A DNA stretch of 64,000 nucleotides from Terrimicrobiaceae bacterium (GCA_044342325.1 JBIIPZ010000003.1:36930-100929), one strand, 5' to 3'; shown: positions 9,709-64,000, counted from the stretch's first letter. Notes: generated by a model from the letters alone, not told the origin. Made by a program: numbers and translations.

Positions 9709-9783
9709 GGCGCCTTCGTCTAGCGGTTAGGACACAGCCCTCTCACGGCTGGTGCACGGGTTCGATTCCCGTAGGCGTCGCCA
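9709..9783 (+). tRNA. tRNA-Glu (anticodon CTC)
   Basis: Acceptor stem GGCGCCT/AGGCGTC, D-arm TAGCGGTTAGGA, anticodon arm CAGCC-CTCTCAC-GGCTG, T-loop GGTTCGATTCC, encoded CCA. Confidence 0.96.
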
Positions 9784-41009: not shown

Positions 41010-42005
41010 ATGCGCTACTTGGATCCAAAGAACGATCTCACCTTCAAGAAGGTGTTTGGCCAGCATCCGCACCTGCTCAAGAGCTTCCTCAACGCGCTGC
41101 TACCGCTGGAGCCTGATGCCCAGATCGTCAATTTGGAGTATCTCCCCAGCGAGCTGGTTCCGGAAATCCCAGAGGTGCGCAACAGCATTGTCGATGTTCG
41201 CTGCATAGACCAAAAAAAGCGGCAGTTCATCGTCGAGATGCAGATGCTTTGGACCGACAGTTTCATGAACCGGGTTCTCTTCAACGCCTCGAAGGCCTAT
41301 GTGAAGCAGTTGAAAACCGGTCAGGAATATCACCTACTGCAGCCTGTTTACTCACTCAACCTCGTCGATGACACATTCATCAAGGACAGCCCGGAATGGT
41401 ATCACCACTACCGGATCGTCCACGCCTTGGACACGGGACGACGGATCGAGGGACTGGAATTTGTTTTTGTCGAGCTGCCGAAATTCCGTCCACAGACGAT
41501 GCCCGAAAAACGCCTGCAGGTTCTCTGGCTGAGGTATCTGACAGAAGTGGGTGAAAAGTCGGCTGAGATTTCCAAAGACCTCCTCGAGCAGCGGGAAGTG
41601 CGAGAGGCGGTTGAATATGTGAAGGAATCGGGATTCAGCGAGGGCGAGCTTGCTGCCTACGACAAATACTGGGACGGCGTGAGCGTCGAACGCACACTCC
41701 TCGCCGATGCGGTTGCCGAAGGTGAAGCCAAGGGGCGTGCCGAGGGTGAAGCAAAAGGCCGTGCCGAGGGTGAAGCAAAAGGCCGTGCCGAGGGTGAAGC
41801 GAAGGGCCGTGCCGAGGGCGAAGCGAAGGGCCTCGCCGAGGGCGAGATGCTCGGACAACAAAAGGTGGCCCTAAAAATGTTGCGCAAGGGACTCGGAGTT
41901 CAAGATGTTTCGGCTCTCGCCGAGATCGATGAGGATGAAGTTCTCCGGCTTTCGAGATTACTCGAAAAGTTCGGCTCGTCTGCCGAAGAACATTGCGCCA
42001 GCTGA
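41010..42005 (+). CDS. Rpn family PD-(D/E)XK nuclease/putative transposase
   Basis: MRYLDPKNDLTFKKVFG, SIVDVRC, FIVEMQ, FVELPKF, C-terminal (AEGEAKGR)n repeats. Confidence 0.9.
   Translation: MRYLDPKNDLTFKKVFGQHPHLLKSFLNALLPLEPDAQIVNLEYLPSELVPEIPEVRNSIVDVRCIDQKKRQFIVEMQMLWTDSFMNRVLFNASKAYVKQLKTGQEYHLLQPVYSLNLVDDTFIKDSPEWYHHYRIVHALDTGRRIEGLEFVFVELPKFRPQTMPEKRLQVLWLRYLTEVGEKSAEISKDLLEQREVREAVEYVKESGFSEGELAAYDKYWDGVSVERTLLADAVAEGEAKGRAEGEAKGRAEGEAKGRAEGEAKGRAEGEAKGLAEGEMLGQQKVALKMLRKGLGVQDVSALAEIDEDEVLRLSRLLEKFGSSAEEHCAS
41715..41846 (+). repeat. Coding 24-bp tandem repeat (5.5 units, AEGEAKGR)
   Basis: GCCGAGGGTGAAGCAAAAGGCCGT-like units at 24-bp spacing. Confidence 0.9.
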
Positions 42006-47926: not shown

Positions 47927-48166
47927 TCAGCGCTGGGGAGGAGGGGATCCGGATTCGCGGAAAGTGATGCGACCCTTGGTGAGATCGTAGGGAGAAATTT
48001 CGACGGTGACACGATCCCCCGGAACAATGCGGATGAAGTGCTTTCTCATTTTTCCAGAGATGTGGCAGAGGAGAACATGGTCGTTAGCCAACTTGACCCG
48101 AAAAAGCGTTCCAGGAAGCACATCCACTACTACTCCATTACTTGTGATACAGTCGTCTTTGGCCAT
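47927..48166 (-). CDS. infA: Translation initiation factor IF-1
   Basis: MAKDDCI...[36 protein letters not shown] (C-terminal 79 aa of ORF 47927..48721). Confidence 0.96.
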
Positions 48167-48231
48167 GTCGTGTCTTTCATAGGTCAGGAAGGAAAGGCAT
48201 GCAACCCTTGGGCGAATGAAATCGGCCTCTA

Positions 48232-48288
48232 AAAAGTTGAAGCCCGTCGCAACGAGTGTCGCAACGGGCTTCTGTTCCCCCCAGAACA
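48232..48288 (-). ncRNA. Candidate small RNA, copy 1 (G-rich-loop hairpin + terminator)
   Basis: Own promoter (A-tract, TTGCGC-16 bp-TACTTT, TG extension; 48294-48321); 54/57 identical to 54846-54902. Confidence 0.7.
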
Positions 48289-48363
48289 ATTTCAAAGTAA
48301 CATGAGATCGGTGGTGCGCAATACTTTTTTTACTTTTTTTTCGCTGTCGGGTAGCGGCTTTTT

Positions 48364-49371
48364 TTATGGCTGACGAAGCGTGTAGTAACCGGTCTTTTTT
48401 CCGCCGATTTTCTCCACAACGCCAGCGTCCAACAAGGGACGGAGCAAGTCCATCGCGCCCTGTCGGGATATTTTCATGGTAGCCCAGATTTCCGCAGGAG
48501 CCATGCGGCCATGATCCCGGAGGAGCTGAAGCAGCCATTCCTGTTTGGGACGAAGCACCAATTTCTCCGGCAATCTCACCTCCAGCGCCTGCACACGGAG
48601 CCATGCATTCTCTAGCGTTAACCGAACACCCTCGGCACAGTATTCGAGCCATCCAGTGAGGTCTTCGCCAACCATCCGAACCGCATACAGCGCGGCATAG
48701 TATCCGGGGCGATCCTCCCAATAGTATTCATCCACGGAGAAAATGTGATGGCTGTCGAATCCACGCCGATAGAGTTCCCACAACGCCAATGCGCGACCAG
48801 TTCGCCCATTGCCATCGGCAAAAGGATGAATGTCCTCGAAACGATAGTGCAGGATGGCGGAACTGAGCACCGGCGAGAGTTTGGAGGACTCTTTGTTCCA
48901 CCAGTCCAGAAGCTCAAACATGAGGCCAGAGACATCCGCTGCGGCAGGCGGAAAATGGTTGCCTACCCGCACGGCGATCATTCGATAACTTCCGGCGATG
49001 CCTTGATCCATGACCTCACCCGCCAGAATCCTGTGCAACTCGAAGAGATCCTCGTGGCAGATTCGCTCCTTCATGGCGTGCTTCTCCACATAACGCAATC
49101 CGGCGAAGTAATTGAGCACCTCCCGCCGCGATCGAGTATCCGAGGCCACGACTTCCCGTCCCTCCTCCAGCGCACGGACCTGCTCCAGCGTCAACGGATT
49201 GCCTTCGATTGCCGTCGAAGCGTGAACATTACGAGTTCGGGTGTCTTTTTGCAACGCAGGAATCCACGAAACCTCCACAGCGGCACCTTGAATGCGTTCA
49301 CGCAATGCCGCTATCGTTTCCACCAGAGAAAGCAGGTGCGGAGTGATGGTAAAATGCGGGATGTAGGGCAT
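48364..49371 (-). CDS. Fic-family protein with C-terminal winged HTH
   Basis: Canonical [13 protein letters not shown]-terminal inhibitory motif STAIEGN, HTH-like C-terminus. Confidence 0.92.
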
Positions 49372-49454
49372 CCGATGAGTCAAGTATAAGTCAACTCATT
49401 AGTCAAGCCATCAGCGGAGAGCTTGTATGCGTGGAAGCGGGCGGGGCGTTTTTT

Positions 49455-50450
49455 TCAGAGGCTGCAAGCCGCATCGATCGCGGTGAGTTCCTCGGGGGTG
49501 ATGTGTGTTTTTTCCAAAGTGACTACATTTTCCTGAATCTGCTGGAGGCTGCTGGCTCCGATGAGAACGGATGTGACTGCGGGGCGGGTGAGCACCCATG
49601 CTAGGGCGAGTTGGGCGAGCGTCTGACCGCGATTCGCGGCGATCTCTGCGAGGGAGCGAATGCGTTGCATTTTTTCCTCGGTGACCTGGTCTGGCTTGAG
49701 GAATCCATGGGGCTTGCTGGCTCTGGATCCGTCTTCGATTCCGTTCAGATAGCGGCTTGTGAGAAGACCCTGTGCGAGCGGGCAGAATGCGATGCAGCCG
49801 GCGCCCACATGGAGGAGGACATCTGAGAGGCCGTCCTCTACCCAGCGGTTGAATAAATTATACTGGGGTTGGTGGATCAGGAGCGGAACGCCGGCGGATG
49901 CGAGAAGATCAGCGGCGCGGCGAGTCATGTCGGCAGGATAGTTTGAAACGCCTGCGTAAAGTGCCTTACCCGAGCGCACGGCTTGCACAAGAGCGCCGAT
50001 AGTTTCCTCTAACGGAGTTTCCGTATCGGGACGGTGACTGTAGAAAATATCCACATAATCGAGTCCGAGGCGCTTGAGACTTTGGTCCAGACTGGCGAGA
50101 AGGTATTTCCGGGAACCCCACTCTCCGTGCGGGCCGGGCCACATGCGGTAACCGGCCTTGGTCGAGACAACGAGCTCGTCGCGATGTGCACGCAGGTCGT
50201 TTTTTAAAATCCGTCCGAATGTCTCTTCGGCACTGCCGGGCACGGGGCCGTAGTTGTTAGCGAGATCGAAATGCGTGATGCCAAGGTCGAAGGAACCAAG
50301 GATCATTTCCTGGCAGTTTTCAAACACATCGACACTGCCGAAGTTATGCCACAAACCGAGCGAGATTGCAGGTAGGAGGAGGCCGCTCCGTCCACAGCGT
50401 CTGTAAGGCATGTGGTCGTATCGGGTGGTGGATGGGATATGGGACATCAT
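49455..50450 (-). CDS. gpr: Aldo/keto reductase, YghZ/Gpr-like (L-glyceraldehyde-3-phosphate reductase)
   Basis: YRRCGRSGLLLPAISLGLWHNFG, FDLANNYGP, STKAGY, YVDIFYSHRPD. Confidence 0.88.
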   Translation of the reverse strand: MMSHIPSTTRYDHMPYRRCGRSGLLLPAISLGLWHNFGSVDVFENCQEMILGSFDLGITHFDLANNYGPVPGSAEETFGRILKNDLRAHRDELVVSTKAGYRMWPGPHGEWGSRKYLLASLDQSLKRLGLDYVDIFYSHRPDTETPLEETIGALVQAVRSGKALYAGVSNYPADMTRRAADLLASAGVPLLIHQPQYNLFNRWVEDGLSDVLLHVGAGCIAFCPLAQGLLTSRYLNGIEDGSRASKPHGFLKPDQVTEEKMQRIRSLAEIAANRGQTLAQLALAWVLTRPAVTSVLIGASSLQQIQENVVTLEKTHITPEELTAIDAACSL

Positions 50451-51565
50451 AGGGTTTTTTCAAAAAGACCCCACTCGCGGTCGGGCTCGCCGCCGACGAT
50501 TTGGCATACATCGATGATTTCGGCGTTGGTGTCTTCGAGCCAGCCGAGTATGGCGTGGGTGTGGTGTTTTTTGGCTTCGCTGAATTGCTCATGCACGAGC
50601 CAGGCGTGGAGGCCCTTGTCGCGAAATTCCGGAACCACGCCGAGCACGGTCTGGCGGCAGGTTTTGATCTTCCGGGTTTTCATCAGGAAAAAAATATGGA
50701 GCAAGCGCAGCCAATGCGGCGTGTTTTTAGCTGCGGCGAGGATTTCGTTGAAGTTCGGCAGAGTGATGGCCACGCCGGCGTCACGGCCTTTCGATTCGCC
50801 GATGAGCAGCAGGCGGGGATCGGCGATGGCGCGAATATCTTCCGCCGAGTCGAGCAAGTCCTCCATGCCGATGGGAACGAATCCCCAGTTCCTCTCGAGG
50901 GTGGCATTGTAAACTTCGCGGACGATTTTAAGTTCCTCGTCGAGCCGCTTGAGTTGGAAGGGGCGGGTCGTGAGGTTGGCGCGTTTTTTCAAGCGCTCCA
51001 CGATGCGGGTAAACCTCTCCGGAGGATTGAGCTGGTGGAGAGGGAGACTGAGCACATAGAGGGTGCGGACTTTTTTGAAGCCCAGATCTTCGAGCAGGCT
51101 GGCGTAGTAGGAAGGATTCCATGGCAAGCCGATGACGGGCTGTTTTTCGAAGCCGTTCAGGAGAACCCCACAGTCGTCATTGATGCTGGGATTGTAAGGT
51201 CCGCGCAAGGTATCGAGGCCCGCTTCCCGGAGAACCTCGGCGGCCTTCTCAAAAAGCGCGCGGGCCACAGCAGGTTCATTCAGACAGTCAAAAAAACCAA
51301 AGAAGCCGACCTTGTCTTTGTGATATTCGTTGTGCGAGCGGTTCACGACCGCCGCGATGCGGCCGATGGGTCGTCCATCGCGCTCGGCGATGAAAGCTGT
51401 GATGGTGCCGTGGCGACGCTGGAATGTGGAATCAGGCGCGAGAAACTTTGCGACGCTACCGGGAAACGGCGGCACGAAGGCCGGATCCGTTTTGTGAATG
51501 CTCTCCGCCGTTCTCTCGAACCGCATCCTCTGCGACGGCGTCTGGCAAACGGAAATCGAAAACAT
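50447..51565 (-). CDS. GNAT-fold protein, YghO/bacterial ceramide synthase (bCerS)-like
   Basis: DPAFVPP, GRIAA, VGFFGFFDC, RGPYNPSINDDCGVLLNGF, WNPSYY, NWGFVP, LGVVPEFRDKG, WLEDTN. Start MFSISV inferred from the family N-terminus. Confidence 0.75.
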   Translation of the reverse strand: MFSISVCQTPSQRMRFERTAESIHKTDPAFVPPFPGSVAKFLAPDSTFQRRHGTITAFIAERDGRPIGRIAAVVNRSHNEYHKDKVGFFGFFDCLNEPAVARALFEKAAEVLREAGLDTLRGPYNPSINDDCGVLLNGFEKQPVIGLPWNPSYYASLLEDLGFKKVRTLYVLSLPLHQLNPPERFTRIVERLKKRANLTTRPFQLKRLDEELKIVREVYNATLERNWGFVPIGMEDLLDSAEDIRAIADPRLLLIGESKGRDAGVAITLPNFNEILAAAKNTPHWLRLLHIFFLMKTRKIKTCRQTVLGVVPEFRDKGLHAWLVHEQFSEAKKHHTHAILGWLEDTNAEIIDVCQIVGGEPDREWGLFEKTL

Positions 51566-52796
51566 TTTTACGGCGTCCTGGATTGGCATAGGCAGGGTCA
51601 TCAAAGGTTCCCAACTCGCGGGCGAGTTTCTCAAAAATTTCCAACACGCGATCAAGGTCTTCATCCGTGTGTGTGGCCATGAAGCTGGTGCGAACGATGG
51701 CTTCACCATAACGCACGGCGGGATAGATGGCTGGCGTGGCGAATATTCCCTCCTCAAAAAGACGCTGGGTGAAGACAAAGGCCTTCGCCTCACTGCCAAT
51801 GAGAATAGGCACAATCGGCGTTTTGGTTTCGCCGATATTGAACCCGATGCGCTTGAAACCCTCGTGCATCTTGCGGGTATTACGCCAAAGTTGTTCGATG
51901 CGCCACTCCTCCTCTTGCATGAGTTCCAGAGCCTTTTTCACGCCGCCAACAACGGCTGGGGCAAGGGCGGCTGTGAAAATCAAACATCGGGCGCGGTGCT
52001 TCAGATACTCGACCATCTGGCCATTTCCAGCGATGAAGCCGCCCATGGAGCCAAGCGATTTCGAGAAAGTGCCCATGGTGATGTCCACCTGGTCTTGCAC
52101 ACCGAAATGATCCACGGTGCCGCGCCCTTGGCGGCCCAGCACGCCGAGCGAGTGGGCCTCATCCACATAAACAAAGGCACCGTGGCGCTTCGACACAGGG
52201 ATGATTTCAGGCAGGTTGGCGATGTCGCCCGACATGCTGAAAACGCCATCCAGGATGACCAAGCGACCGGATTCGTCCGGCACGCGCTTGAGGCGGTTTT
52301 CGAGAGATGTGGCGGAGTTGTGACGGAAAGGAATCAACTTCGCAGGCGCAAACTGGCAACCATCGATGATGCTGGCGTGGTTCTCGCGGTCGCAGAGGAT
52401 GGAGTCTCCCTCCTCCGTGAGCGCGATCAAGGCACCTTGATTGGCAAAAAAACCGGTGGAGAAAAGAATGGCGTCCTCGCAGCCAAGAAAATCGGCAATG
52501 GCCTCCTCCAACTCCACATGCAGCTTGATCGTGCCATTCAGGAGTCGAGAACCAGTGCAGCCGGCACCATATCGTCGCGTCGCCTCGCAGGCTGCCTCAA
52601 CTACGCGCGCATCTTGAGCAAGACCGAGGTAATTGTTCGACCCGATCATGATCTTTCGCTCACCGTCACAGATCACATAATTGCCGTGCGGTTCCTCGAT
52701 AGATCGGAAATAGGGATAAAACCCTTGGGCGCGCGCATCCGCACTGTCCCTATATTCCCTGCATTTTTGAAAGAGATCTCTCGGTCCGTTAGCCAT
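51456..52796 (-). CDS. PLP-dependent alpha-oxoamine synthase, serine palmitoyltransferase-like
   Basis: GFYPYFR, GSNNYLGL, GCTGSRLLNGT, NHASIIDG, DGVFSMSGD, VDEAH, MGTFSKSL (PLP lysine). Confidence 0.85.
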   Translation of the reverse strand: MANGPRDLFQKCREYRDSADARAQGFYPYFRSIEEPHGNYVICDGERKIMIGSNNYLGLAQDARVVEAACEATRRYGAGCTGSRLLNGTIKLHVELEEAIADFLGCEDAILFSTGFFANQGALIALTEEGDSILCDRENHASIIDGCQFAPAKLIPFRHNSATSLENRLKRVPDESGRLVILDGVFSMSGDIANLPEIIPVSKRHGAFVYVDEAHSLGVLGRQGRGTVDHFGVQDQVDITMGTFSKSLGSMGGFIAGNGQMVEYLKHRARCLIFTAALAPAVVGGVKKALELMQEEEWRIEQLWRNTRKMHEGFKRIGFNIGETKTPIVPILIGSEAKAFVFTQRLFEEGIFATPAIYPAVRYGEAIVRTSFMATHTDEDLDRVLEIFEKLARELGTFDDPAYANPGRRKNVFDFRLPDAVAEDAVRENGGEHSQNGSGLRAAVSR

Positions 52797-52923
52797 CAAA
52801 TTAGTGAGCAAGATTTGCACCTGCACATGAGAAGTAAATCATTTTCCCATCCTCAAGAGAGTAGGTGCGGTTTGAGATTTCTACGAGCAAAGCCAATGGG
52901 AAGGTGCAAAAAAAATTAGCATC

Positions 52924-54297
52924 CTACTCAAGTGAGTAGCTGCGCCCCGACTCCGGAACGATCACCTCGGTGCCGCCGAGTTCACGGAAGAGCGCCAGTT
53001 GAAACCAATCGAGTGCCGGGCGGTCACCGTGAACGAGAAGGATTTTCGACGGCCGCAGGAGGGCGGCATAGTTTCTGATCGTTTCCCGGTTTGTGTGTGC
53101 GCTGAAACTGAACTCACGGACATCGCACTTCAGCGAAATCGCAGGGTGGTCCTTGTCGAGCATGATCTCATCCCCCGGCGAGGCTTTTCGGATGCGGGCC
53201 GAAGGTGAGTCGGGATCGGAATAGCCGACGAAGAACAAATGCTGCGAGGCGTCTCCAAGAATCCGGCGGGCAAAAATATTTGAGAGCGTGTGCTCGGTCA
53301 TCATACCGCTCGACAACGCATAGATCGCGCGCTTGCGGGGCTGCACATTTTGAATTTCGCGGCCCGAAAGCACGTAGGGAGCCATTTCCTGCAGCAGTTG
53401 CAACTCGGGATGGTTCCGCACCGAGGTCGCTGCCATGGCATCATACGCGGTCGTGACCTTCACGCTGAGGCCACCGATATAGACGGGAATGTTGCCGATT
53501 TCCCCGCGCAGCCGCATTTGCCAGAGCAGGGCCAGAACCTCTTGGGTCTTGCCAAGGGCGAAAACAGGAATCGTCACAGTGCCACCATTGGCAATCGCCT
53601 CGCTCACGGAGCGCGAGAATCGCTCCTCCTCATTCGCGCGGGAAAAACCCACCGGTGTCGGCGAGTCGCCGCGGGTTGTTTCCATGAGCAGGTAGTCGAC
53701 ACCCTCCTCCGGAAAGTCAGCCCCCGTCATGATCGTCTGGTTCTCGAAATTCACATCACCCGTGTAGAAAAACGACTTTCCTGCATGGCGGATGAGCACC
53801 CCCACCGAGCCGAGAATATGCCCCGCGTGGTAGAACTCGAAAGTGACTTCATGGTCATCATCGCACAGATCGCCCAGGAGGTTGCGACGCTGGCGCAGCG
53901 GGCATCGCACCCAAGCCTGCTGGCAAAAATCCACACCACGGTGTGTGTAGAGCGGATACTCCATGAGCTTCAACTCCTCGCGCTGGCGCGTCATGACATT
54001 CACGGAATTGTGCAGCATGATGTCTGCGATATTCGCCGTGCCCTCGGTCATGAAAACCGGACACTGCGGCTCACGGCGCGTCAGCACCGGCAATGAGCCG
54101 ATGTGGTCTTGGTGCGCATGGGTGATGATGATGGCATCCACCGTTCCCTGCGGAACGGTCGCCAGATTCGGAGTGGAGCCCAGCCCATCGACCTTCGGAT
54201 CCGCCCCCGCATCAAGAATGATATTTTTGCCCCCGACACGCAGCCAGTAACAATTTGAGCCGATCCCGAGGTGGCGGGTGAGGTTGACGAAATCCAT
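52924..54297 (-). CDS. Metallo-beta-lactamase/beta-CASP family ribonuclease
   Basis: THAHQDHIG, AGHILGS, YTGD, PVFALGKTQE, SSGMM, FSAH, LVHGD. Confidence 0.9.
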   Translation of the reverse strand: MDFVNLTRHLGIGSNCYWLRVGGKNIILDAGADPKVDGLGSTPNLATVPQGTVDAIIITHAHQDHIGSLPVLTRREPQCPVFMTEGTANIADIMLHNSVNVMTRQREELKLMEYPLYTHRGVDFCQQAWVRCPLRQRRNLLGDLCDDDHEVTFEFYHAGHILGSVGVLIRHAGKSFFYTGDVNFENQTIMTGADFPEEGVDYLLMETTRGDSPTPVGFSRANEEERFSRSVSEAIANGGTVTIPVFALGKTQEVLALLWQMRLRGEIGNIPVYIGGLSVKVTTAYDAMAATSVRNHPELQLLQEMAPYVLSGREIQNVQPRKRAIYALSSGMMTEHTLSNIFARRILGDASQHLFFVGYSDPDSPSARIRKASPGDEIMLDKDHPAISLKCDVREFSFSAHTNRETIRNYAALLRPSKILLVHGDRPALDWFQLALFRELGGTEVIVPESGRSYSLE

Positions 54298-54373
54298 GTG
54301 GAGCGAAGGTGGGTGAGGAATGGCGGTTCCTCAATGTTTAAATCCGGCCGCCAAAACAAAAGCGGGACGGGGA

Positions 54374-54787
54374 TTACATCCGTCCCTCATCCGCATCGAT
54401 GTAATGGAACATCGTTTGGATATCGTCGCGGTTTTCGAATCCGCTCTCTTTTTTGCGACTGACAAGGCGCTCACTGAGTTCATCGCTCCAACCGCGCTTC
54501 ACCATGAAGTTGTTCCAAATCTCGATTTGCTCCTCCGTGGGACGCGTGCCTTTTTGGAAGCACCACTCGAGCACCTCTTCATCGGTCCCACCCGCAAGCA
54601 CGCGGTTTTTCAAATCAGAGTAACTCACGGCGAGAAATGTTGAGATGCGTTCATCGAAGCCTTGGCCGAGATTCGCATGGAGATCCGAATGCAACTCCTC
54701 GGCAGCCATGAGGCGGATTTTATCCACCATGCGTCCGAAGTAGACGATTCCACCGACCTGATCCTTGGGTGAGCGCGGGTATTTCAT
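54374..54787 (-). CDS. DUF5069-like protein
   Basis: MKYPRSP..VGGIVYFGRMVDKIR...FD...FL...TDEEVLEW...IDADEGR. Confidence 0.75.
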   Translation of the reverse strand: MKYPRSPKDQVGGIVYFGRMVDKIRLMAAEELHSDLHANLGQGFDERISTFLAVSYSDLKNRVLAGGTDEEVLEWCFQKGTRPTEEQIEIWNNFMVKRGWSDELSERLVSRKKESGFENRDDIQTMFHYIDADEGRM

Positions 54788-54845
54788 GAGGCCATGCTGT
54801 CAGCGCCCCGACAGGCATGAAAGGCTGAAAAACAAGACCCCTGAT

Positions 54846-54902
54846 AAAAGTTGAAGCCCGTCGCAACGAATGCTGCAACGGGCTTCTGTTCCCCCCAGAA
54901 CA
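54846..54902 (-). ncRNA. Candidate small RNA, copy 2
   Basis: Own promoter (A-tract, TTGCAG-16 bp-TATGTT, TG extension; 54908-54935); 54/57 identical to copy 1. Confidence 0.7.
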
Positions 54903-54992
54903 GGATCAACATAACACTCGAGTCCGGAACTGCAACAACTTTTTTAATTTTTTTTGTGACCCGCAAGGACTGGTCTTTTCAAGAGAAGCGAA

Positions 54993-56015
54993 TCACTCCG
55001 CGCGGCGCGCCCAGCGGAGTTTGGCTGATGTGGCGCGGGGGTTGGTTCGGCACTCGTCGGACGAGGCTCGCGTAACCTCATCGGCGATGGAGCTGAAAAT
55101 CCCCTCGCGGAACCCAGCTTGGAATGCCTTTTTGACACGACGATCCTCGCCGGAGTGGAAGGTCAGGATGGCCACACGCCCGCCGGGACTCATGCAGGGG
55201 GGCAAGGCACGCAAGAGAGCATCCAAGGCGCTGAACTCTTCGTTTACGGCAATTCGCACGGCTTGAAAAACACGCCGGATCGCTTTCTCCACTAGTTCGG
55301 CAGGCCGGTGCGGAAGAGCGCTTCGGATGGCATCGGCCAAGTCTGTCGTGGTTTCGAGGCATTTCCCGGCAAGCCCCGCCGCGAGCGCGGCGGCATCCGG
55401 TTCATCGGCATTTTCAATCAATGCCTCCTCCAGCGCGGGCGGCCTTATTTTCAAGAGCCACTGGGCGGCGGAAACACCCCTCGAGGGGTTCATCCTCATA
55501 TCAAGAGGTCCAGCGGATTTCCAAGTGAAGCCCCTTGCGGGATTATCCAACTGCATCGAGGAAACTCCCAAGTCAGCCAGGATCACATTCGCTCCCGAAA
55601 AACCTGAATCCGCCAGGGCGGCAGGAAGTCCGGCGAAATTCGATTTCCTTGCGGTGAAAATCCCTTCACCAAAGCCCTCGGCACGCAAAGCGGCCTCGGT
55701 CTTGGGAAGCTCCAGCGGGTCGGCATCGAGTCCGATGACATGCCCGCCTGGAGCGACACGCGAGAGAAGACGGCGCGTGTGCCCACCGAAGCCCAGCGTG
55801 CAATCGACAGCGGTGTCGCCGGGACGAGGATCAAGGATCTCGAGGATTTCCTCCACCATGATTGGCACATGGCTGCCGGCTGGCGTCTTGCCTGAAGCGA
55901 GCACGCGGGCGAGCGTGTCGGGATTCCCCGAGAGTTCCTTGTATTTTTGATCAAACCGTCGCGGGTATTTGCCCGAATAGCGTGGTCGGCGGCGGTGCGG
56001 CGTCTCTTCGCTCAA
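54993..56015 (-). CDS. rsmH: 16S rRNA m4C1402 methyltransferase RsmH (MraW) family
   Basis: HVPIM, DCTLGFGGH, ADLGVSSMQLD, GPLDMRM, FQAVRIAVNEE, TFHSGEDRRVK, NPRATSAKLR. Confidence 0.9.
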   Translation of the reverse strand: MSEETPHRRRPRYSGKYPRRFDQKYKELSGNPDTLARVLASGKTPAGSHVPIMVEEILEILDPRPGDTAVDCTLGFGGHTRRLLSRVAPGGHVIGLDADPLELPKTEAALRAEGFGEGIFTARKSNFAGLPAALADSGFSGANVILADLGVSSMQLDNPARGFTWKSAGPLDMRMNPSRGVSAAQWLLKIRPPALEEALIENADEPDAAALAAGLAGKCLETTTDLADAIRSALPHRPAELVEKAIRRVFQAVRIAVNEEFSALDALLRALPPCMSPGGRVAILTFHSGEDRRVKKAFQAGFREGIFSSIADEVTRASSDECRTNPRATSAKLRWARRAE

Positions 56016-56640: not shown

Positions 56641-57693
56641 TTAAAGTTCGGCTGCGAAGGATTCGATGTCGGCGCTGCGGATTGCGGCGCGGAGAAGTGA
56701 TTGCAACCTGGCAGTGTCGGCGATCGACTCGATTTCCTCGCGCAGACCCTCCGGAACTCGTTCGAAACGGATTTCCAGCGCTTCGAGGATGTCTTGTTGT
56801 TTGGAGAGGATCAAACCTTCCTGACGACCTTCCTGACGACCTTCCTGACGACCTTCCTGACGACCTTCCTGACGACCTTCCTGACGACCTTCGTGACGAC
56901 CTTCTTGGCGGCCCTCCTGACGACCTTCTTGGCGGAATTGTTCGGCGAGTGACATGGCGTTTTTGCTCAGTTTTGGGTTGTGCAGCGTTTGTAGTTTCCG
57001 ACGAAAGGCGGGCTTGTCAAGGTCGCGGTCCAGGATGTAGCGCATCAGCATTTCGAAGCACGCCGGGGACAACTGGACCAGTAATGATTCGTCCCAGACG
57101 GAGTCATCAAGGAGGGCTTGGAGTTTTTCGGCTTTGAGCGCTCGCAGGGTGAGGATCCCCATCGGCGTGCCGAGAATTTTTTCATACGGCATGCGGAACA
57201 ACTCCACGAGCTGGAATTCAAAGTCGGGGATGTGTTTTCTGATGTCCTCCCCTGCCCCTTCGGAAATGTCGATCAAGTCAGCGAAGCGGGTGGAACTTGT
57301 CCAGGGCTTGTTGTCCTGCGCGAGGACGAGCGGCAGGATGGGAGGGAGTTTCGTGGCGCCGGGATTGTTGCGGAGATAGTCGTTCCAGATGCGGACCATG
57401 TAGGTGAGCAGGCGCAGGCCGATGAGCGGGTCTTCCTGGTTCTGGTGCTCGAAGAGGATGTAGAGGAAGGCAGGTTGGCCGTCGATTTTCGCAGTAAATA
57501 GTAGGTCGCTCGAGGTGGCGGCGAATTCCGGGTCGATGAAAGTGCCACTGACCAGAGTCAACGAGCTCCAATCCATGCGGCGGGTGAGCTTGCGCGGTAG
57601 ATTGGCTTCCAGAAAGGCCCGGGCGTTGTCGGAGTCCGAAAAGGTGGACTTGACGAGCTTGTCGTGGGGTTGGTGGAGAGGACTCTCGGGCAT
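56641..57693 (-). CDS. Rpn family recombination-promoting nuclease/putative transposase (YhgA-like)
   Basis: PHDKLVKSTF, SDLLF, YILFEHQ, LPPILPLV, MSLAEQF-(RQEG)n tail. Confidence 0.92.
   Translation of the reverse strand: MPESPLHQPHDKLVKSTFSDSDNARAFLEANLPRKLTRRMDWSSLTLVSGTFIDPEFAATSSDLLFTAKIDGQPAFLYILFEHQNQEDPLIGLRLLTYMVRIWNDYLRNNPGATKLPPILPLVLAQDNKPWTSSTRFADLIDISEGAGEDIRKHIPDFEFQLVELFRMPYEKILGTPMGILTLRALKAEKLQALLDDSVWDESLLVQLSPACFEMLMRYILDRDLDKPAFRRKLQTLHNPKLSKNAMSLAEQFRQEGRQEGRQEGRHEGRQEGRQEGRQEGRQEGRQEGRQEGLILSKQQDILEALEIRFERVPEGLREEIESIADTARLQSLLRAAIRSADIESFAAEL
56815..56934 (-). repeat. Coding 12-bp tandem repeat (10 units, RQEG)
   Basis: ACCTTCCTGACG units on the plus strand. Confidence 0.92.
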
Positions 57694-58028: not shown

Positions 58029-61000
58029 TCATGCGGGCCGATGACCCTGCAAAAGTTTTCGTTTGGCTCTGCGGCGGAGGTATTGGATGACGAGGCCGGC
58101 GAGGAGGGCGACGGCGTAGAAGTAGGTTTCGGTTTCGGGGACGGCTATGATTTGGCTGCCACCGCCAGAGAAGCCACTGACTTCGAATCCGCTTCCAACG
58201 AAGCTGTTGCCTGAGTCGCTGTAAAAACTGATGTTTGCGAGATTGGAAGTGAGGGTCGAGTTGTTGGAGAAGACGAGATTGCTGGGGGTTGCATAATTGT
58301 TGACTTGTGTTCCCCAATAGGTGGTTCCGCTCCAGTTCCAGATGGCGAGGTTGGCGCCGGTTGCCCAGGAGCCTATGCCACTGAAGCGGAGGGTGCCGAC
58401 GAAGCCGGAGAAGTCGAGGGTCGAGTTGGCACTGAGGGTGAGGGCACCGACCGTTTCATTGAAGGTTCCACTCACAGCCATGCGGCCGCCACCGAGATTG
58501 ATGGCGGTGTTGTCGTTGACGGCGTTCTCTGCCGTGACGAGGAAGGAGCCGCCGGTGACATTGATGACTGTGCTATTGCCCATGGCTCCGGCTGAGGCGG
58601 CGGTGAGGGTTCCGCTGGAGATGGTTGTGGTGCCAGTGAAGCCGCTGTTGTTGCCTGTGAGGACTTGGGTGCTGGCGCCGTCCTTCACGAGGGCGGAGCT
58701 GGAGCTTCCAGTGATGCGGCCGGCGTAGGTGGTGTTGCCGCTCGTGGTGCCAAGTGTGAGGGTATTAGAACCGAGGGTGACGGTGGAGGTGGTGTTGCCG
58801 GTGAGGGAGGCGATGGATTGGCTGGCGCCGAGGGCGAGTGTGGAGCTGCCGGTGCCGGTGGCGTCGATGGAGATAGCGCTGCGACCATTCGCGGTCGGGA
58901 GGGCGTTAGTGATATTGGCACTTAGCGTCGCGCCGTTAACGAGGGATGTCGGGCCGTTGTAGGTGTTCGTGCCAGTGAGGTTCACTGTGCCGCCATCGAT
59001 GACGAGGTCGGAGTTCGCGCTTGAGCCACTGATGGCATTACTGACCGTGATGCCGTTGCTGCCGCCTGCGAGGGTGAGTGTGGTGCCATTTTTGCTAAGG
59101 CCGCCGGAGAGGGTGAGGAGTCCGCTGCCGCTGTTGCGGATGGTGCCGGTGCCGCTGGTGACCGAGATCAAGCGGTCGAGGGTGGCGGCGGAGCCGGTGT
59201 AGGCGAGAGTGGTGGAGTTGGCGAGGTTGACGCCGGAGGTCGCACTGAGTGCTGTGACCGTGCTGAGCGAGAGGGTGCCGGCGCTGATGGTGGTGGCTCC
59301 GGTGTAAGTGTTTGTGCTACCTAGGACGAGTGTGCCGCTGCCTGCTTGCGTGAGATTTCCCGTGCCGCTGATGCTGTTGGCGAAATCCGTGCCTTGCGTG
59401 AGGGTATTGGAGCGCTTGAAGACCAGCGTTCCGTTGTTGGTGATCGTGCCGCTGGCCGAAAGCCCCCCGCTTGTGCCGCCATTGCCGATCTGCAGCGTGC
59501 CTGCATTGATGGTGGTGGACCCAGAGTAGGTGCTGTTGCCGGTCAGGATAAGCGTGCCAGCGCCGATCTTTGTGACAGTAACGTTGCCGGTGGAGATGAG
59601 GGAGCTTGCAAATGAAGTGGTGTTTAGGACGTTGAATGTTTTGCTACCTGTTGACGCGAAGGTGGCAGTGCCTGTGTCTGTAAATGTGAGGTTGCCTGTG
59701 CCCCCGTTGGCTTGGCCGAATGTATAGGACCAGGTTCCGCTGAGTCCGCCCACATTATTCGATATGGTGCGGTCTGTGCCATCGGTGCTGGCGATAGTCC
59801 CGCCGAGTCTGAGTATGCCGGTGCCGAAGGCTTTGTCATGTCCTACCAGGACCGTTCCGGTAGTGATGGTGGTTCCACCCGAGTAGGTATTGTTGCCAGA
59901 GAGAGTCAGGGTGCTGTTGCTGTTCTTGGTGAGTGCGCCAGCACCGCTAACGACTCCACTGATAGTCGTGCTGCTATTGCCCAGCATGGTGAGTGTGGCG
60001 TTGGCTGCGACGGCCACATTTCCGCCAAAAACAAGGCTACCCGTGTTGCCGGAGATTGTCTGGTTGGCGGCGAAGCTTGTGGCGACATTGATCGTCTGGG
60101 TTACAATAGAGTTGTTTGTGACCCCCCCGCCGATGGCGAGGGCTGAAGCGGAGTTGTAACCCGCCGACCCGGAGTTTGCCCCCAGCGTGTAGGAATTTAT
60201 GCCGTCAAAAGTGAGGCCGCCGATACTGGAGAGCGTCGCTGAGGCGATGTCGTTCGTCGCAGTTCCTCCCAAGCCAGCAAAGGTGGCATTGCCGCCGGTT
60301 GTAATGGCTGGGCTGAATCCCGTGGACCAGTTGCCCGTGCCGCCTGTGTAGGTCGGCGTATTCGCAGTGTAGGTGTAGGTCAAACGCAGCGTGCTGCCCG
60401 TATCGGTAAGGGCCCATGCGGAGGATTGGGCATCCAGATCACCTTGGAAAGCCGATGTGTTGAGAGTGAAGTAGGATGCGTTGAAACCATTGATTGTTCC
60501 GTAATCAATGATGTCCCACGACTGGTTGGAGGTGGTGTAAATCCAGTTTGACGGATTGCCAGAGGATGTGATGGCAATCGTGAATGTCGAGGTGGCATTC
60601 GAGCCGATGGTGAGGAGGCCGGTTGCGTTGATCTGGTCCCAACCGGTGCCGGCTGCGCCGGTTGCGTCCGCCATTTCCCACGAGTAGGTGGCGCCGCCAT
60701 TGAGCGTCAGGTTGCCCACGGTGAGTATGCCAGGAGAGCTGCTGGGGCCGATCTTGCCACCGCTGTTGATCGTGGTGGCTCCGCCCGTGCCGCTTCCGGC
60801 GAGCGTGCCGCCACTGTTGACCGTGATGGCACTGTTGGAATTCGTGCCGTTCAGCACAAGAGTTCCCGCGCTGATGGTAGTCGACCCAGTGTAGGTGTTG
60901 GCACCGGAAAGCGTGAGCGAACCGGAACCCACCTTGATGAGGCTGCCGCCAGAACCAGCGAGGATGCCGGTGAAGCTCGTGGTGGCATTGTTGGCACCGA

Positions 61001-64000
61001 CACTGATTGTGTTACTTCCAAAATCCAAGGTGTCGCCGCCTTGGATGGCTCCGATGTTATAGGTGTTGGCGCCAGCCACGCCGAATGTCACCGCCTGCGA
61101 CCCAGAGATGCCGGTATCGAGTGTGCTGTTTTGAAGAGCGTTTAAGTTGCCGAGAGAAAGTGTGCCCTGATTGATGGTGGCCGTGCCGCTGAAGGTGTTG
61201 GCCGCAGAGAGGGTCATGGTGCCGGTGCCGTTTTTGGTCAGGCCGCCAGAAGAGTTGGAGGAGACGACCGCCCAGCCGATATTCATGTTTGCGGAAGCCC
61301 CGATATCGAAGACTTGGGTCGACCCCTCCAAACTGATGCGACCAAGGCCCGTAGAAGCGTTGGTGAAGTTGGCCGTGGTATCAGCATCTACAGCCAGACC
61401 GCTGAGCAAGATTAGCCCCTTTGAGGCATTGCTTGCGTTGCTATAGGAAAAGGTGGCATTTCCAAGCGTAGTCTGCCCTGTGGTAATGATGCTACCGCCC
61501 GCGACAGTCATCGAAATCGTGCCGCCCGTGAAGCCAGCATTGGAAGAAAGAGTCAAGATGCCGCTACTCATGGACAGGGCTCCCCCAGACATGGCTATCG
61601 CGCCGATGGTTTCGTCTCTGTTTGCCAATACGAAGCTGCCGCTACTGAGCGTGACTGTGGCGGAGTTTGAAATTTGGTCATTCACCGTCGTTGCGTAGTT
61701 CAGCGTTCCGCCATTGATCAGGATGTCGCCTGAGATGGTGGAGTTGTTGCTGACGGCGTTGCCGAGGCGGATTGTGCCGCCGGAGATGGTAGTGGTGCCG
61801 GTGTAGCTATTGTTGCCGGAGAGCGTGAACGCGCCGGAACCCACCTTGGTGAGGTTGCCGCCGGAACCGGCGAGGGTGCCTGTGAAGCTCGTGGCAGCGT
61901 TATTGGCGCCAACGCTGATTGTATTGTTTCCAAAATCCAAGGTGTCGCCGCCTTGGATGGCCCCGATGTTGTAGGTGTTGGCACCGGCTACGCTGAAGGC
62001 CAGTGCCTGCGACCCGGAGGTGCCGGTATCGAGTGTGCTATTTTGGAGGGCGTTTACATTGTTGAGCGAAACCGTGCCTGCATTGACTGTGGTGGTTCCG
62101 GTGTAGGTGTTTGCCGCAGAAAGGGTCAGAGTTCCGGTGCCGTTTTTGGTGAGGGCGCCGGAAGAGTTGGTGGAGGCGAGTGCCCAGCCGATATTCATGT
62201 TTGCGGAGGCCCCGACATCGAAGACTTGGGTCGATCCCTCCAAACTGATCCGACCAACACCGGTGGAAGCATTGGTGAAGTTGGCTGTCGTGTTGGCGTC
62301 CACAATCAGACCACTCGAAAAGATCAGACCCTTTGTGGCATTGCTTGCGTTGCTATAGGAGAAGGTCACATTTCCGAGGGTGGTCTGCCCTGCGGTAACG
62401 ATACTACCACCCGCGACAGTCATCGAGATCGTGCCGCCCGTGAAGCCTGCATCGGAAGATAGGGTCAAGACGCCGCTGGTCATGGACAAAGCTCCCCCGG
62501 ACATGGCTATCGTGCCGATGGTTTCGTCTCTGTTTACCAATGCGAAGCTGCCGCTGCTGAGAGTGACCGTAGCGGAGTTGGAAATTTGGTCGCTGATCGC
62601 GCTTCCGTAGTTCAGCGTTCCGCCGTTGATTAGGATGTTGCCCGAGATCGTGGAGTTGTTGCTGGCAGAACTGTTGAGGGCAAGAGTGCCGGCTGAGATC
62701 GTGGTGGTGCCGGTGTAACTGTTGGTGCCATTGAAGGTGAGGGTGCCGGTGCCGGCTTGAGTGACATTGCCGGTGCCGGAAATGCCGCTGGCGAAATTCG
62801 TGCCTTGCGTGATGGCATTTGAGCGATTGAAGACGAGGGTGCCGTTGTTGGTGATCGCGCTGGAAGAGGATAGCGCCCCGGTGGTGCCGCCATTTCCGAT
62901 CTGGAGTGTCCCGGCATTGATTGTTGTGGCACCGGAGTAGGTGTTCGCAGCGGAGAGCGTGACGGTGCCGGATGTGGTTTTATTGACACCGACTGTTCCT
63001 GCCAGAATGGCCGCTGCCGTTCCGTTTTCCAAAATGAAGTCGCTGGTTGAGGTCAGGATGGGGTTTGTGCCGCTGATTGTTCCGTTCGCCGAAAGAATTA
63101 CCCCGGCCACGGTATCGTTGAAAGTGGCCATATTAAAGGTGCCTCCATTGACGCGGAGGGTGCTGGAGTCGCTGATGCGATTGTTGGCTCCTATTTGAAG
63201 GATACCGCTGTTAACCGTAGTATCGCCGGTGTAGTTATTGCTGCCAGCAAGCAGAAGCGTGCCGCTACCGTTTTTAGTCAGGCCGCCTGTTGTCGTTGTG
63301 GCAGTTCCAGAGATAGTGAGAGTGGTGCCTGCCGAAGAAACATCGATCACGCTGGTTGTGGCGTTCGAGAGCGTGAAGTTGCGGTCGGTCGAGCCGTTGC
63401 TGCCTGTGTAGAGGAGCGTTCCGCCACCGAGCACGAGGTTGGCTGCGGCGTTCGTGGAGTTACCCAAGGCCCCTGCCACACCGCCATTGGTGATGGCCGC
63501 GATGCTCAGCGTGCCGGCATTGATGGTTGTGGCCCCAGTGTAGGTATTTGAAGCGTTGAGGGTCAATGTGCCGCTGCCGTTTTTAGTAAGGCCGCCGCTA
63601 TTACTGGAATCCAAGATACTGGCAAAGGTCACGCTTTGTCCGTTGGTATCAATCGACATGGCGCTACCGCTGTTTTTGATGCGACCGGAGAGATCGACCG
63701 TAATGCCGCTACCGTATTGAAGGGCTCCACCACCAAATGTAATGTTTCCCGAAGTGCCAAGCGCATTTGCGTTGCCGATCTGAAGGATGCCGGCGCTGAT
63801 GGTTGAGTTGCCAGTGTAGGTGTTTGAAGCATTGAGGGTCAATGTGCCGCTACCGGTTTTAGTGAGGCCTGCGCTATTGCTGGAATCCAAGACGCTGTTA
63901 AGGGACACACTTTGCCCGTTGGTATCAATAAACATGGCGCTGGCGCTGTTTTTGATGCGACCGGAGAGATCGACCGTAATGCCGCTACCGTATTGAAGGG
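58029..64000 (-). CDS. Giant autotransporter-associated beta-strand-repeat surface protein with PEP-CTERM-like sorting signal (5' end beyond window)
   Basis: Many LTK.G.GTLTL...NTY.G.TTI..GTL repeats; C-terminal VPETETY + TM helix + RRRAKRK; the frame stays open from 63935 to the window edge. Confidence 0.9.
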   Translation of the reverse strand, partial: LQYGSGITVDLSGRIKNSASAMFIDTNGQSVSLNSVLDSSNSAGLTKTGSGTLTLNASNTYTGNSTISAGILQIGNANALGTSGNITFGGGALQYGSGITVDLSGRIKNSGSAMSIDTNGQSVTFASILDSSNSGGLTKNGSGTLTLNASNTYTGATTINAGTLSIAAITNGGVAGALGNSTNAAANLVLGGGTLLYTGSNGSTDRNFTLSNATTSVIDVSSAGTTLTISGTATTTTGGLTKNGSGTLLLAGSNNYTGDTTVNSGILQIGANNRISDSSTLRVNGGTFNMATFNDTVAGVILSANGTISGTNPILTSTSDFILENGTAAAILAGTVGVNKTTSGTVTLSAANTYSGATTINAGTLQIGNGGTTGALSSSSAITNNGTLVFNRSNAITQGTNFASGISGTGNVTQAGTGTLTFNGTNSYTGTTTISAGTLALNSSASNNSTISGNILINGGTLNYGSAISDQISNSATVTLSSGSFALVNRDETIGTIAMSGGALSMTSGVLTLSSDAGFTGGTISMTVAGGSIVTAGQTTLGNVTFSYSNASNATKGLIFSSGLIVDANTTANFTNASTGVGRISLEGSTQVFDVGASANMNIGWALASTNSSGALTKNGTGTLTLSAANTYTGTTTVNAGTVSLNNVNALQNSTLDTGTSGSQALAFSVAGANTYNIGAIQGGDTLDFGNNTISVGANNAATSFTGTLAGSGGNLTKVGSGAFTLSGNNSYTGTTTISGGTIRLGNAVSNNSTISGDILINGGTLNYATTVNDQISNSATVTLSSGSFVLANRDETIGAIAMSGGALSMSSGILTLSSNAGFTGGTISMTVAGGSIITTGQTTLGNATFSYSNASNASKGLILLSGLAVDADTTANFTNASTGLGRISLEGSTQVFDIGASANMNIGWAVVSSNSSGGLTKNGTGTMTLSAANTFSGTATINQGTLSLGNLNALQNSTLDTGISGSQAVTFGVAGANTYNIGAIQGGDTLDFGSNTISVGANNATTSFTGILAGSGGSLIKVGSGSLTLSGANTYTGSTTISAGTLVLNGTNSNSAITVNSGGTLAGSGTGGATTINSGGKIGPSSSPGILTVGNLTLNGGATYSWEMADATGAAGTGWDQINATGLLTIGSNATSTFTIAITSSGNPSNWIYTTSNQSWDIIDYGTINGFNASYFTLNTSAFQGDLDAQSSAWALTDTGSTLRLTYTYTANTPTYTGGTGNWSTGFSPAITTGGNATFAGLGGTATNDIASATLSSIGGLTFDGINSYTLGANSGSAGYNSASALAIGGGVTNNSIVTQTINVATSFAANQTISGNTGSLVFGGNVAVAANATLTMLGNSSTTISGVVSGAGALTKNSNSTLTLSGNNTYSGGTTITTGTVLVGHDKAFGTGILRLGGTIASTDGTDRTISNNVGGLSGTWSYTFGQANGGTGNLTFTDTGTATFASTGSKTFNVLNTTSFASSLISTGNVTVTKIGAGTLILTGNSTYSGSTTINAGTLQIGNGGTSGGLSASGTITNNGTLVFKRSNTLTQGTDFANSISGTGNLTQAGSGTLVLGSTNTYTGATTISAGTLSLSTVTALSATSGVNLANSTTLAYTGSAATLDRLISVTSGTGTIRNSGSGLLTLSGGLSKNGTTLTLAGGSNGITVSNAISGSSANSDLVIDGGTVNLTGTNTYNGPTSLVNGATLSANITNALPTANGRSAISIDATGTGSSTLALGASQSIASLTGNTTSTVTLGSNTLTLGTTSGNTTYAGRITGSSSSALVKDGASTQVLTGNNSGFTGTTTISSGTLTAASAGAMGNSTVINVTGGSFLVTAENAVNDNTAINLGGGRMAVSGTFNETVGALTLSANSTLDFSGFVGTLRFSGIGSWATGANLAIWNWSGTTYWGTQVNNYATPSNLVFSNNSTLTSNLANISFYSDSGNSFVGSGFEVSGFSGGGSQIIAVPETETYFYAVALLAGLVIQYLRRRAKRKLLQGHRPA

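Follow-up and report, generated by a model that had tools for sequence, protein, structure and literature searches.

We analysed a stretch of 64,000 nucleotides (nt) from a Terrimicrobiaceae bacterium (GCA_044342325.1 JBIIPZ010000003.1:36930-100929), referred to here as the window, which carries on its minus strand two short and nearly identical genes for a putative non-coding small RNA (sRNA). Read along that strand, the gene order is rsmH, sRNA gene copy B, a DUF5069 gene, a beta-CASP/MBL RNase-like gene, an aminotransferase gene, an unknown open reading frame (ORF), an aldo-keto reductase gene, a Fic-domain gene, sRNA gene copy A, infA and an Hsp70-family gene (Table 1). The two copies belong to a new sRNA gene family, of which related freshwater Verrucomicrobiota keep one to four copies per genome. 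Judged from the sequence, we hold with high confidence that copies A and B are genuine stand-alone RNA genes; how their product might act is a matter on which we are far more cautious.

Table 1. Coordinates of the two sRNA genes, their predicted promoters and their neighbours in the window, and of the most divergent family members.
Feature	Position	Strand	Remarks
sRNA gene copy A	48231..48287	-	Predicted transcript from G48287 to U-run 48235-48231
Copy A, parts		-	5' hairpin GUUCU-GGGG-GGAAC, A, 15-bp hairpin 48272-48239, then AACUUUUU
Promoter A (predicted)	48294..48341	-	A-tracts 48341-48325 (UP-like), -35 TTGCGC 48321-48316, 16-nt spacer
Promoter A, -10 region		-	TG 48302-48301; -10 TACTTT 48299-48294
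sRNA gene copy B	54846..54901	-	Predicted transcript from G54901 to U-run 54849-54846
Copy B, parts		-	5' hairpin as in copy A; 15-bp hairpin 54886-54853, AG/UU upper stem, AUUC loop
Promoter B (predicted)	54908..54955	-	A-tracts 54955-54940, -35 TTGCAG 54935-54930, 16-nt spacer
Promoter B, -10 region		-	TG 54916-54915; -10 TATGTT 54913-54908
infA (IF-1, 79 aa)	47927..48166	-	PF01176, E 9e-26; starts 65 nt after copy A
Fic-domain gene	48364..49383	-	Stop 76 nt before copy A +1
DUF5069 gene (137 aa)	54374..54787	-	PF16798, E 8.7e-42; starts 58 nt after copy B
rsmH (MraW methylase)	54993..56015	-	Stop 91 nt before copy B +1
Most divergent family members	L026:5075-5160, L027:9975-10055		Upstream of TamB-like gene

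In a pairwise alignment of 250 nt around each copy, the two elements are identical at 54 of 57 nt, while their flanks are dissimilar except for spaced, promoter-like blocks upstream. The shared minus-strand sequence is GTTCTGGGGGGAACAGAAGCCCGTTGC(GA/AG)CA(C/T)TCGTTGCGACGGGCTTCAACTTTT, and the only mismatches are the GA/AG exchange in the upper stem and the C/T difference in the loop. The initial annotation of this DNA had described two paralogous elements of ~56 nt, and we recover both within 1 nt of where it placed them; the first base that it assigned to each (T48288 and T54902), however, is probably position -1, the predicted start being the G that follows. The 5' 27 nt occur exactly twice in the 64-kb window (48261-48287 and 54875-54901), against none expected from 100 shuffles, and a covariance-model search of the window with filters off found no third copy. 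Under the covariance model R1, copy A scores 87.2 bits and copy B 89.1 bits.

Relatives of the two genes were collected in one scan of representative genomes with the exact 18-mer CTGGGGGGAACAGAAGCC, taken with 10-kb flanks. The scan returned 69 loci, which after merging of overlaps correspond to 72 distinct places, 68 of them in 32 metagenome-assembled genomes (MAGs) titled Terrimicrobiaceae, Chthoniobacterales, Spartobacteria, Chthoniobacter or Verrucomicrobia, labels that NCBI taxonomy puts within Verrucomicrobiota. The remaining four places (in Kiritimatiellae, Paenibacillus, Dechloromonas and Pseudomonas) hold the 18-mer only, without hairpin and promoter, and are chance matches in unrelated taxa. 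Cultured strains (Terrimicrobium, Chthoniobacter) gave no exact match to the 18-mer in the representative-genome set. Four copies were found in four MAGs, three in eight, two in eight and a single copy in 12; these counts are lower bounds, as MAGs are incomplete and their assemblies fragmented. Adding the window's own two copies gave a family set of 70 copies in 33 genomes, which we aligned on the predicted start. What had been proposed from two copies as a family of sibling sRNAs thus gains 68 more members in 32 related genomes, with the same anatomy from promoter to terminator. The window is itself ~94% identical over ~10 kb to two of the loci recovered (L033 and L004), and so comes from a close relative of these genomes while being identical to neither.

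Conservation is concentrated in the RNA. Information content averages 1.78 bits per position over the 58-nt RNA segment, and still 1.69 when the 18 positions forced by the search are left out, as opposed to 0.24 bits per position in the 60 nt downstream and 0.64-0.73 upstream; conservation therefore begins at +1 and ends at the U-run. Model R1, searched against the window and 67 of the 69 loci (920 kb in all, L031 and L037 being omitted as duplicates of L004 and L033), gives every family copy 80-90 bits, with the best other match at 17.7 bits. Over these 920 kb it found the known copies and their antisense hairpins only, and no diverged further copy. Where the sRNA gene adjoins murJ, the MurJ proteins of different genomes are 75-100% identical (median 78%) and the adjacent sRNA copies 88-100% (median 96%). 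The variants of the upper stem are specific to the locus and common to orthologues: GUUGUAGC/GCUGCGAC at murJ, GUUGCGAC/GUUGCGAC at infA and GUUUCAAC/GUUGAGAC after the helicase gene. This pattern implies that the paralogues are older than the species splits, and hence that their identical 5' parts are not explained by recent duplication.

The promoter geometry that the initial annotation had seen at both sites (A-tract, TTGC -35 element, 16-nt spacer, TGnTAnnnT) is likewise confirmed, and is peculiar to them: a pattern of A6 tract, TTG, 16-nt spacer and TGnTAnnnT occurs only at these two sites in the 64 kb, with 0.02 expected, and the G start lies 7 nt after the -10 element in each. Across the family, TTG is found at -35 in 67 of 69 evaluable copies with a spacer of 16 nt (60 copies) or 17 nt (seven copies), TAnnnT occupies exactly -12 to -7 in 59 of the 69, and 55 have the TG extension. 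Ten copies lack an in-register TAnnnT; it is shifted 1 nt upstream in six of these, lies 22 nt upstream in two (L026 and L027) and is ambiguous in two. The upstream consensus, aAAAaaaatt.AAAAaAattcTTGc...TGTTA.tTTGA..Tc, runs directly into GTTCTGG. A putative promoter of its own, recognizable at the level of consensus, adjoins the conserved segment in nearly every copy. Directly upstream of copy A's A-tract, a hairpin with a T-run was called on the plus strand (48341-48357); seen from the minus strand, the hairpin comes first and the A-tract next. This element could be a barrier to antisense transcription, or its presence may be incidental.

Both copies fold far more stably than expected (z ~ -7) into a short 5' hairpin (helix 1) and a perfect hairpin of 15 base pairs (bp; helix 2) followed by AACUUUU, and they are the top terminator-like sites in an 11-kb scan. 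Helix 2 is paired in 100% of cells over 46 distinct sequences, with four pairs changing on both sides and three more on one side, a degree of change that 0-1 of 500 shuffles reached; the 3' intrinsic terminator stem is supported by covariation. In helix 1, three of four pairs are constant throughout, and A at +1 disrupts pair 1 in one copy. The 5' part has two predicted folds, one pairing GUUCU with GGAAC (5 bp, GGGG loop, -4.8 kcal/mol) and one pairing UUCUG with CAGAA around the 7-nt loop GGGGGAA, which holds GGA (-4.3 kcal/mol, 0.5 kcal/mol weaker). The earlier view that two alternative folds expose the G run stands in so far as the two are nearly isoenergetic, but the predicted fold exposes only four loop Gs. 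The 56-nt sequence contains one GGA, situated in the stem of the minimum-energy fold, and direct reading of the transcript finds no AUG or GUG. The most divergent members (L026 and L027) have a fully recoded upper stem, CUUCUCACC/GGUGAGGAG, and keep the 5' G-run segment; with their promoter 22 nt farther upstream, the transcript would gain an AUCUUU/AAAGAU hairpin 5' of the G-run hairpin.

For all 70 copies we grouped the neighbouring ORFs into clusters and scanned the representatives of these clusters against Pfam. The arrangement found most widely (27 copies in 25 of the 33 genomes) is tail-to-tail with an ORF of ~528 amino acids (aa) whose representative is MurJ (E 8e-111), the murJ stop lying ~9-12 nt beyond the U-run at the sRNA 3' end (e.g. 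L060:9998-10080). Other recurrent neighbours are (i) rsmH, upstream of 12 copies, ten of which have DUF5069 downstream, (ii) the infA/Hsp70 locus, downstream of 11 copies, nine of which have Fic upstream, (iii) a DEAD-box helicase gene, upstream of seven copies, and (iv) sucC and a KDPG aldolase gene, each divergent from six copies. TamB-like, ABC transporter, TPR and convergent aspS genes each occur as singletons. There are thus at least five recurrent and unrelated contexts, and the co-oriented downstream genes are mutually unrelated; the linkage of sRNA gene and infA is kept when the upstream gene switches from Fic to the DEAD-box helicase. Tandem pairs 259 nt apart occur in two genomes (L005 and L028), each copy with its own promoter. 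At L006:3056-4844, a DDE transposase gene (DUF772/DDE_Tnp_1) lies between two family copies, likely as an insertion between copies that were formerly in tandem.

At L060, the one murJ-type locus scanned for terminators, the scan took the shared hairpin for a terminator of the sRNA but not of murJ, and within 500 nt it called none in the murJ direction. For this reason murJ transcripts may run antisense through the sRNA gene, and those that read past the stop may carry a perfect antisense of the sRNA. The initial annotation had favoured independent transcripts over leaders, a preference that is supported by the predicted promoter of nearly every copy, the frequent convergence with murJ and the tandem pairs.

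In the window itself, the genes downstream of both copies may have promoters of their own. A TTGCAT-17-TATGAA box pair, kept in 11 orthologous loci, ends 9 nt before the infA ATG in the spacer 48166-48230, and a CAGCAT/CAGGAT -10-like box, kept in ten orthologous loci, ends 6 nt before the DUF5069 ATG in the spacer 54787-54845. A consensus promoter scan called no strong promoter in either spacer. The separate promoter once credited to DUF5069 is plausible on account of the conserved box, although the scan did not call it. The position of these boxes near the ATG suggests that infA and DUF5069 are transcribed into separate, nearly leaderless messenger RNAs (mRNAs). Neither gene has a Shine-Dalgarno (SD) motif, and the start contexts sampled in related loci (sucC, KDPG aldolase, DEAD-box, Hsp70-like and murJ) are A/C/U-rich without an SD motif; initiation in this lineage may depend on mRNAs that are leaderless or lack an SD. 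Upstream of copy B, no rsmH terminator was called between the rsmH stop and copy B +1.

The family was not recognized when first described, and an Rfam search bears this out. At the gathering threshold, Rfam 15 finds in the window only a transfer RNA (tRNA) at 9709-9780, and in seven related loci (139 kb) only tRNAs. The best match under permissive settings is the sar RNA of phage P22 (RF00262), with 24.8 and 21.8 bits for the window copies and 23.0 for L026. Against a gathering score of 43 these values do not support membership, and we read them as resemblance only: both arrange two hairpins within less than 70 nt, and the base and tail of their terminators (GAAGCCC...GGGCUUCAACU) are almost the same, but sar lacks the G-run, and the new RNA is chromosomal and multi-copy. 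The sar RNA is a single cis-antisense RNA, directed against ant, in the immunity region of P22-like phages, and such a setting is rejected for the window copies, whose neighbours are rsmH, DUF5069, Fic and infA. Searches with blastn in distant mode gave only chance-level 29-nt matches in a phage collection (E 0.3) and nothing meaningful in a plasmid collection. A type I toxin-antitoxin antisense RNA was also considered and rejected: nothing beyond promoter and RNA is conserved between paralogues, and neither strand of the ~120-nt unit shows a conserved ORF on direct reading.

Other known RNAs offer parallels of organization. The sibling families Qrr1-5, LhrC1-5, PrrF1/2 and OmrA/B, whose regulators and chaperones are known, consist of separately promoted, near-identical genes, some of them in tandem, whose RNAs share a short single-stranded motif that does not vary. 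The new family resembles them in having several near-identical, terminator-ended sRNA genes per genome, each with a promoter of its own. It has no sequence relationship to any of them, carries a G6 run where they have C/U-rich or mixed seeds, and belongs to Verrucomicrobiota. The 6C RNA of Actinobacteria (RF01066) is similarly short and highly conserved with homopolymeric runs in hairpin loops, but these are C-runs, which pair with G-rich targets, and thus the mirror case of the present G-run; the Rfam scan did not detect 6C. The murJ arrangement recalls GadY/gadX-type 3'-end cis-antisense pairs, in which a convergent sRNA gene abuts the 3' end of a protein gene, although most paralogues here lie away from murJ and the overlap of the transcripts is putative. 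Finally, CsrB/RsmZ-type sponges are strongly promoted non-coding RNAs, sometimes multi-copy, with G-rich loop motifs. A CsrA/RsmA sponge was nonetheless rejected, since such sponges carry several GGA motifs in hairpin loops whereas the new RNA has a single short hairpin with one GGA, located in a stem of the minimum-energy fold, and no Rfam match.

Taken together, these observations lead us to favour, at a probability of roughly 60%, stand-alone non-coding RNA genes held at several fixed loci in several copies and acting in trans via the 5' part of their product. Under this reading a strong sigma-70-type promoter (UP-like A-tract, TTGC -35 element, extended -10 element) would drive a non-coding transcript of ~56 nt that starts at the G and comprises a 5' hairpin with a G6 run, one linker base, the 15-bp terminator hairpin and a U-run. 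The loci at which the family is kept are those convergent with murJ, those in the orders rsmH-sRNA-DUF5069 and Fic or DEAD-box-sRNA-infA, those following the DEAD-box helicase gene and those beside sucC. The sRNA would act through its sequence-constrained 5' part (G-run hairpin and AACAG), most likely by pairing with pyrimidine-rich (C/U) stretches of mRNAs in a lineage whose start contexts lack an SD motif, and having several copies would allow for dosage effects or for differential control. Where it adjoins murJ, the sRNA would in addition be a perfect antisense of any murJ transcript that continues beyond its stop. As a G-run pairs with C or U, and as the starts sampled are A/C/U-rich and SD-less, pyrimidine tracts near start codons are plausible targets. 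Base-pairing in trans through the G-run segment is, we infer, the most likely mechanism.

Several points weigh against this interpretation. The start, end and expression of the sRNA are all deduced from consensus. Part of the invariance of nt 4-21 is artificial, as the search demanded those 18 bases and so sampled only copies that have them, and helix 1, its invariance imposed in part by the same pattern, is without covariation and is as a structure unsupported. The predicted fold is compact, leaving unpaired only four Gs, one A and the 3' tail. Complementarity to targets was sought in ~1 Mb, made up of the window and sequence within 10 kb of sRNA genes, and its results are weak negative evidence. 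Complements of the seed 10-mer with at most one mismatch number 29, as opposed to ~54 expected by chance on our own estimate, and are thus not over-represented. Pairing to the infA spacer equals the shuffle mean, and start-codon regions are no more complementary to the 5' 17 nt than gene interiors are (medians similar over 40 orthologue groups). A duplex-energy scan of the window found 84 windows at or below -20 kcal/mol, including the antisense of the sRNA genes themselves, compared with 28 in the reversed-sequence control, a modest excess confined to the extreme tail, and duplex scans of the 5' regions of neighbouring genes and of the infA and DUF5069 spacers gave nothing above background. 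The particular proposal that a G-rich seed acts on C-rich leaders accordingly fails to find support in the sequence near sRNA genes.

One site in these scans deserves mention as a lead only. At -44 of the DEAD-box helicase gene, AACCUCCCGGGAU could pair with nt 1-11 of the sRNA at -18.4 kcal/mol with four G-U pairs, a value that chance alone would be expected to yield in this much sequence. The helicase 5' region (about -60 to -1) is almost identical in six genomes (L015, L024, L013, L022, L036 and L041).

The main rival account takes the invariant G-run hairpin as a sequence-specific binding site for a protein, the RNA serving as sponge or cofactor and the promoters and copies supplying its abundance. 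This we regard as unlikely, though deserving of attention: helix 1 keeps its stem bases unchanged instead of covarying, as sequence-specific recognition would have it, the UP-like tracts and extended -10 element suggest high output, genomes hold up to four copies with tandem duplication in two of them, the ~1 Mb scanned gives no signal of mRNA complementarity, and the alternative UUCUG/CAGAA fold brings GGA into the 7-nt loop. Yet each molecule offers one GGA and one short hairpin, the search pattern itself accounts for part of the constancy of helix 1, and no candidate protein was identified, with none among the conserved neighbours. The protein sponge suggested at the outset would have only four exposed loop Gs in the predicted fold and a single GGA motif to act through. 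The prominence of murJ raises the further idea that the RNA is mainly a cis-antisense regulator of that gene, the ancestral tail-to-tail copy tuning murJ by pairing or transcriptional collision and the paralogues adding dosage in trans. The breadth of the context, the closeness of the murJ stop to the sRNA 3' end and the lack of a called murJ-direction terminator within 500 nt at L060 speak in its favour, but position is its sole basis, the terminator scan covers one murJ-type locus, and murJ may terminate in a Rho-dependent or unrecognized manner. Since both window copies and at least four other conserved loci also have no murJ nearby, we think this rather improbable.

Still less credible, as a general account, is that the element is a cis-acting leader or attenuator of infA and DUF5069, with a conditional terminator placed behind a strong promoter and the short RNA arising as a by-product, an alternative that the initial annotation had kept in play. 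Both window copies do lie 58-65 nt upstream of a co-oriented gene in spacers where the consensus scan called no strong promoter, and the link with infA survives the change of upstream gene. However, 28 of the 70 copies face a convergent gene (murJ in 27, aspS in one), others stand in tandem, and the genes downstream are unrelated, which together rule out that the element works in general as a leader or attenuator. The 15-bp hairpin moreover dominates the ensemble with no anti-terminator pairing evident, conserved -35/-10-like boxes stand just upstream of the infA and DUF5069 start codons, and there is no matching Rfam leader. A side role by read-through at the two window loci is possible. We give least credence of all to a mobile or selfish repeat, akin to miniature inverted-repeat transposable elements (MITE) or repetitive extragenic palindromes (REP), or to a reused terminator cassette without an RNA function of its own. 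The element is indeed palindromic, multi-copy and intergenic, and at L006 a DDE transposase gene separates two copies. But the copies, few in each genome, occupy corresponding syntenic positions in genomes that share 75-100% identity in MurJ, conservation spans the promoter and the non-palindromic 5' segment rather than terminal inverted repeats, and the phage and plasmid collections hold no matches. Rather than the many promoter-less copies of a mobile repeat, we find one to four syntenic copies per genome, and a -35/-10 pair in 67 of 69.

A bolder version of action in trans, which we put forward as a long shot, is that an abundant and near-constitutive RNA engages pyrimidine-rich elements globally through its G6 hairpin and so sets translation-initiation capacity in an organism that appears to use leaderless or SD-less mRNAs. 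Candidate partners would be C/U-rich, SD-less regions upstream of starts, or the CCUCC tail of 16S ribosomal RNA. If true, the sRNA with its G-run would mirror the actinobacterial 6C RNA, and would be the first riboregulator to be characterized in this verrucomicrobial clade.

In Verrucomicrobiota, riboregulation has hardly been explored. The table of a 2022 review (PMC9029176) gives only eight annotated sRNAs for the whole Planctomycetes-Verrucomicrobia-Chlamydiae group, and a full-text literature search on sRNAs and non-coding RNA in Verrucomicrobia, Spartobacteria and Chthoniobacter returned, among the papers listed, no RNA that by title or abstract matches the new element; a search on sRNAs with G-rich loops and C-rich sequence listed a paper on a Caulobacter regulator. 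A delimited sRNA gene with extreme conservation, paralogues and fixed neighbours (murJ, rsmH, infA) is an entry point to post-transcriptional control in abundant freshwater Verrucomicrobiota. The genes are also usable as examples of promoter and terminator architecture for the clade, and a new Rfam family could be built from the alignment and covariance model.

Elsewhere in the window, the longest-ORF calls for the unknown 455-aa ORF (50447-51814) and the aminotransferase (51456-52826), both on the minus strand, overlap by ~360 nt; the true start of the former probably lies farther downstream. A 473-aa plus-strand shadow ORF in the same place has no Pfam match. Several repeats were seen as well. 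About 9-12 tandem copies of the 12-nt unit ACCTTCCTGACG, which would encode a repeated tetrapeptide, occupy 56791-56946 inside a YhgA-like (Transposase_31/PD-(D/E)XK) ORF at 56641-57693 on the minus strand. At 41714-41857, a G/A-rich 24-nt unit forms a tandem array (five overlapping 48-nt windows), presumably a coding repeat. Several long internal direct repeats at 38307-39395 and 59261-64000 (75-94% identity over 300 nt; 88% over 213 nt) point to large genes built of repeat domains.

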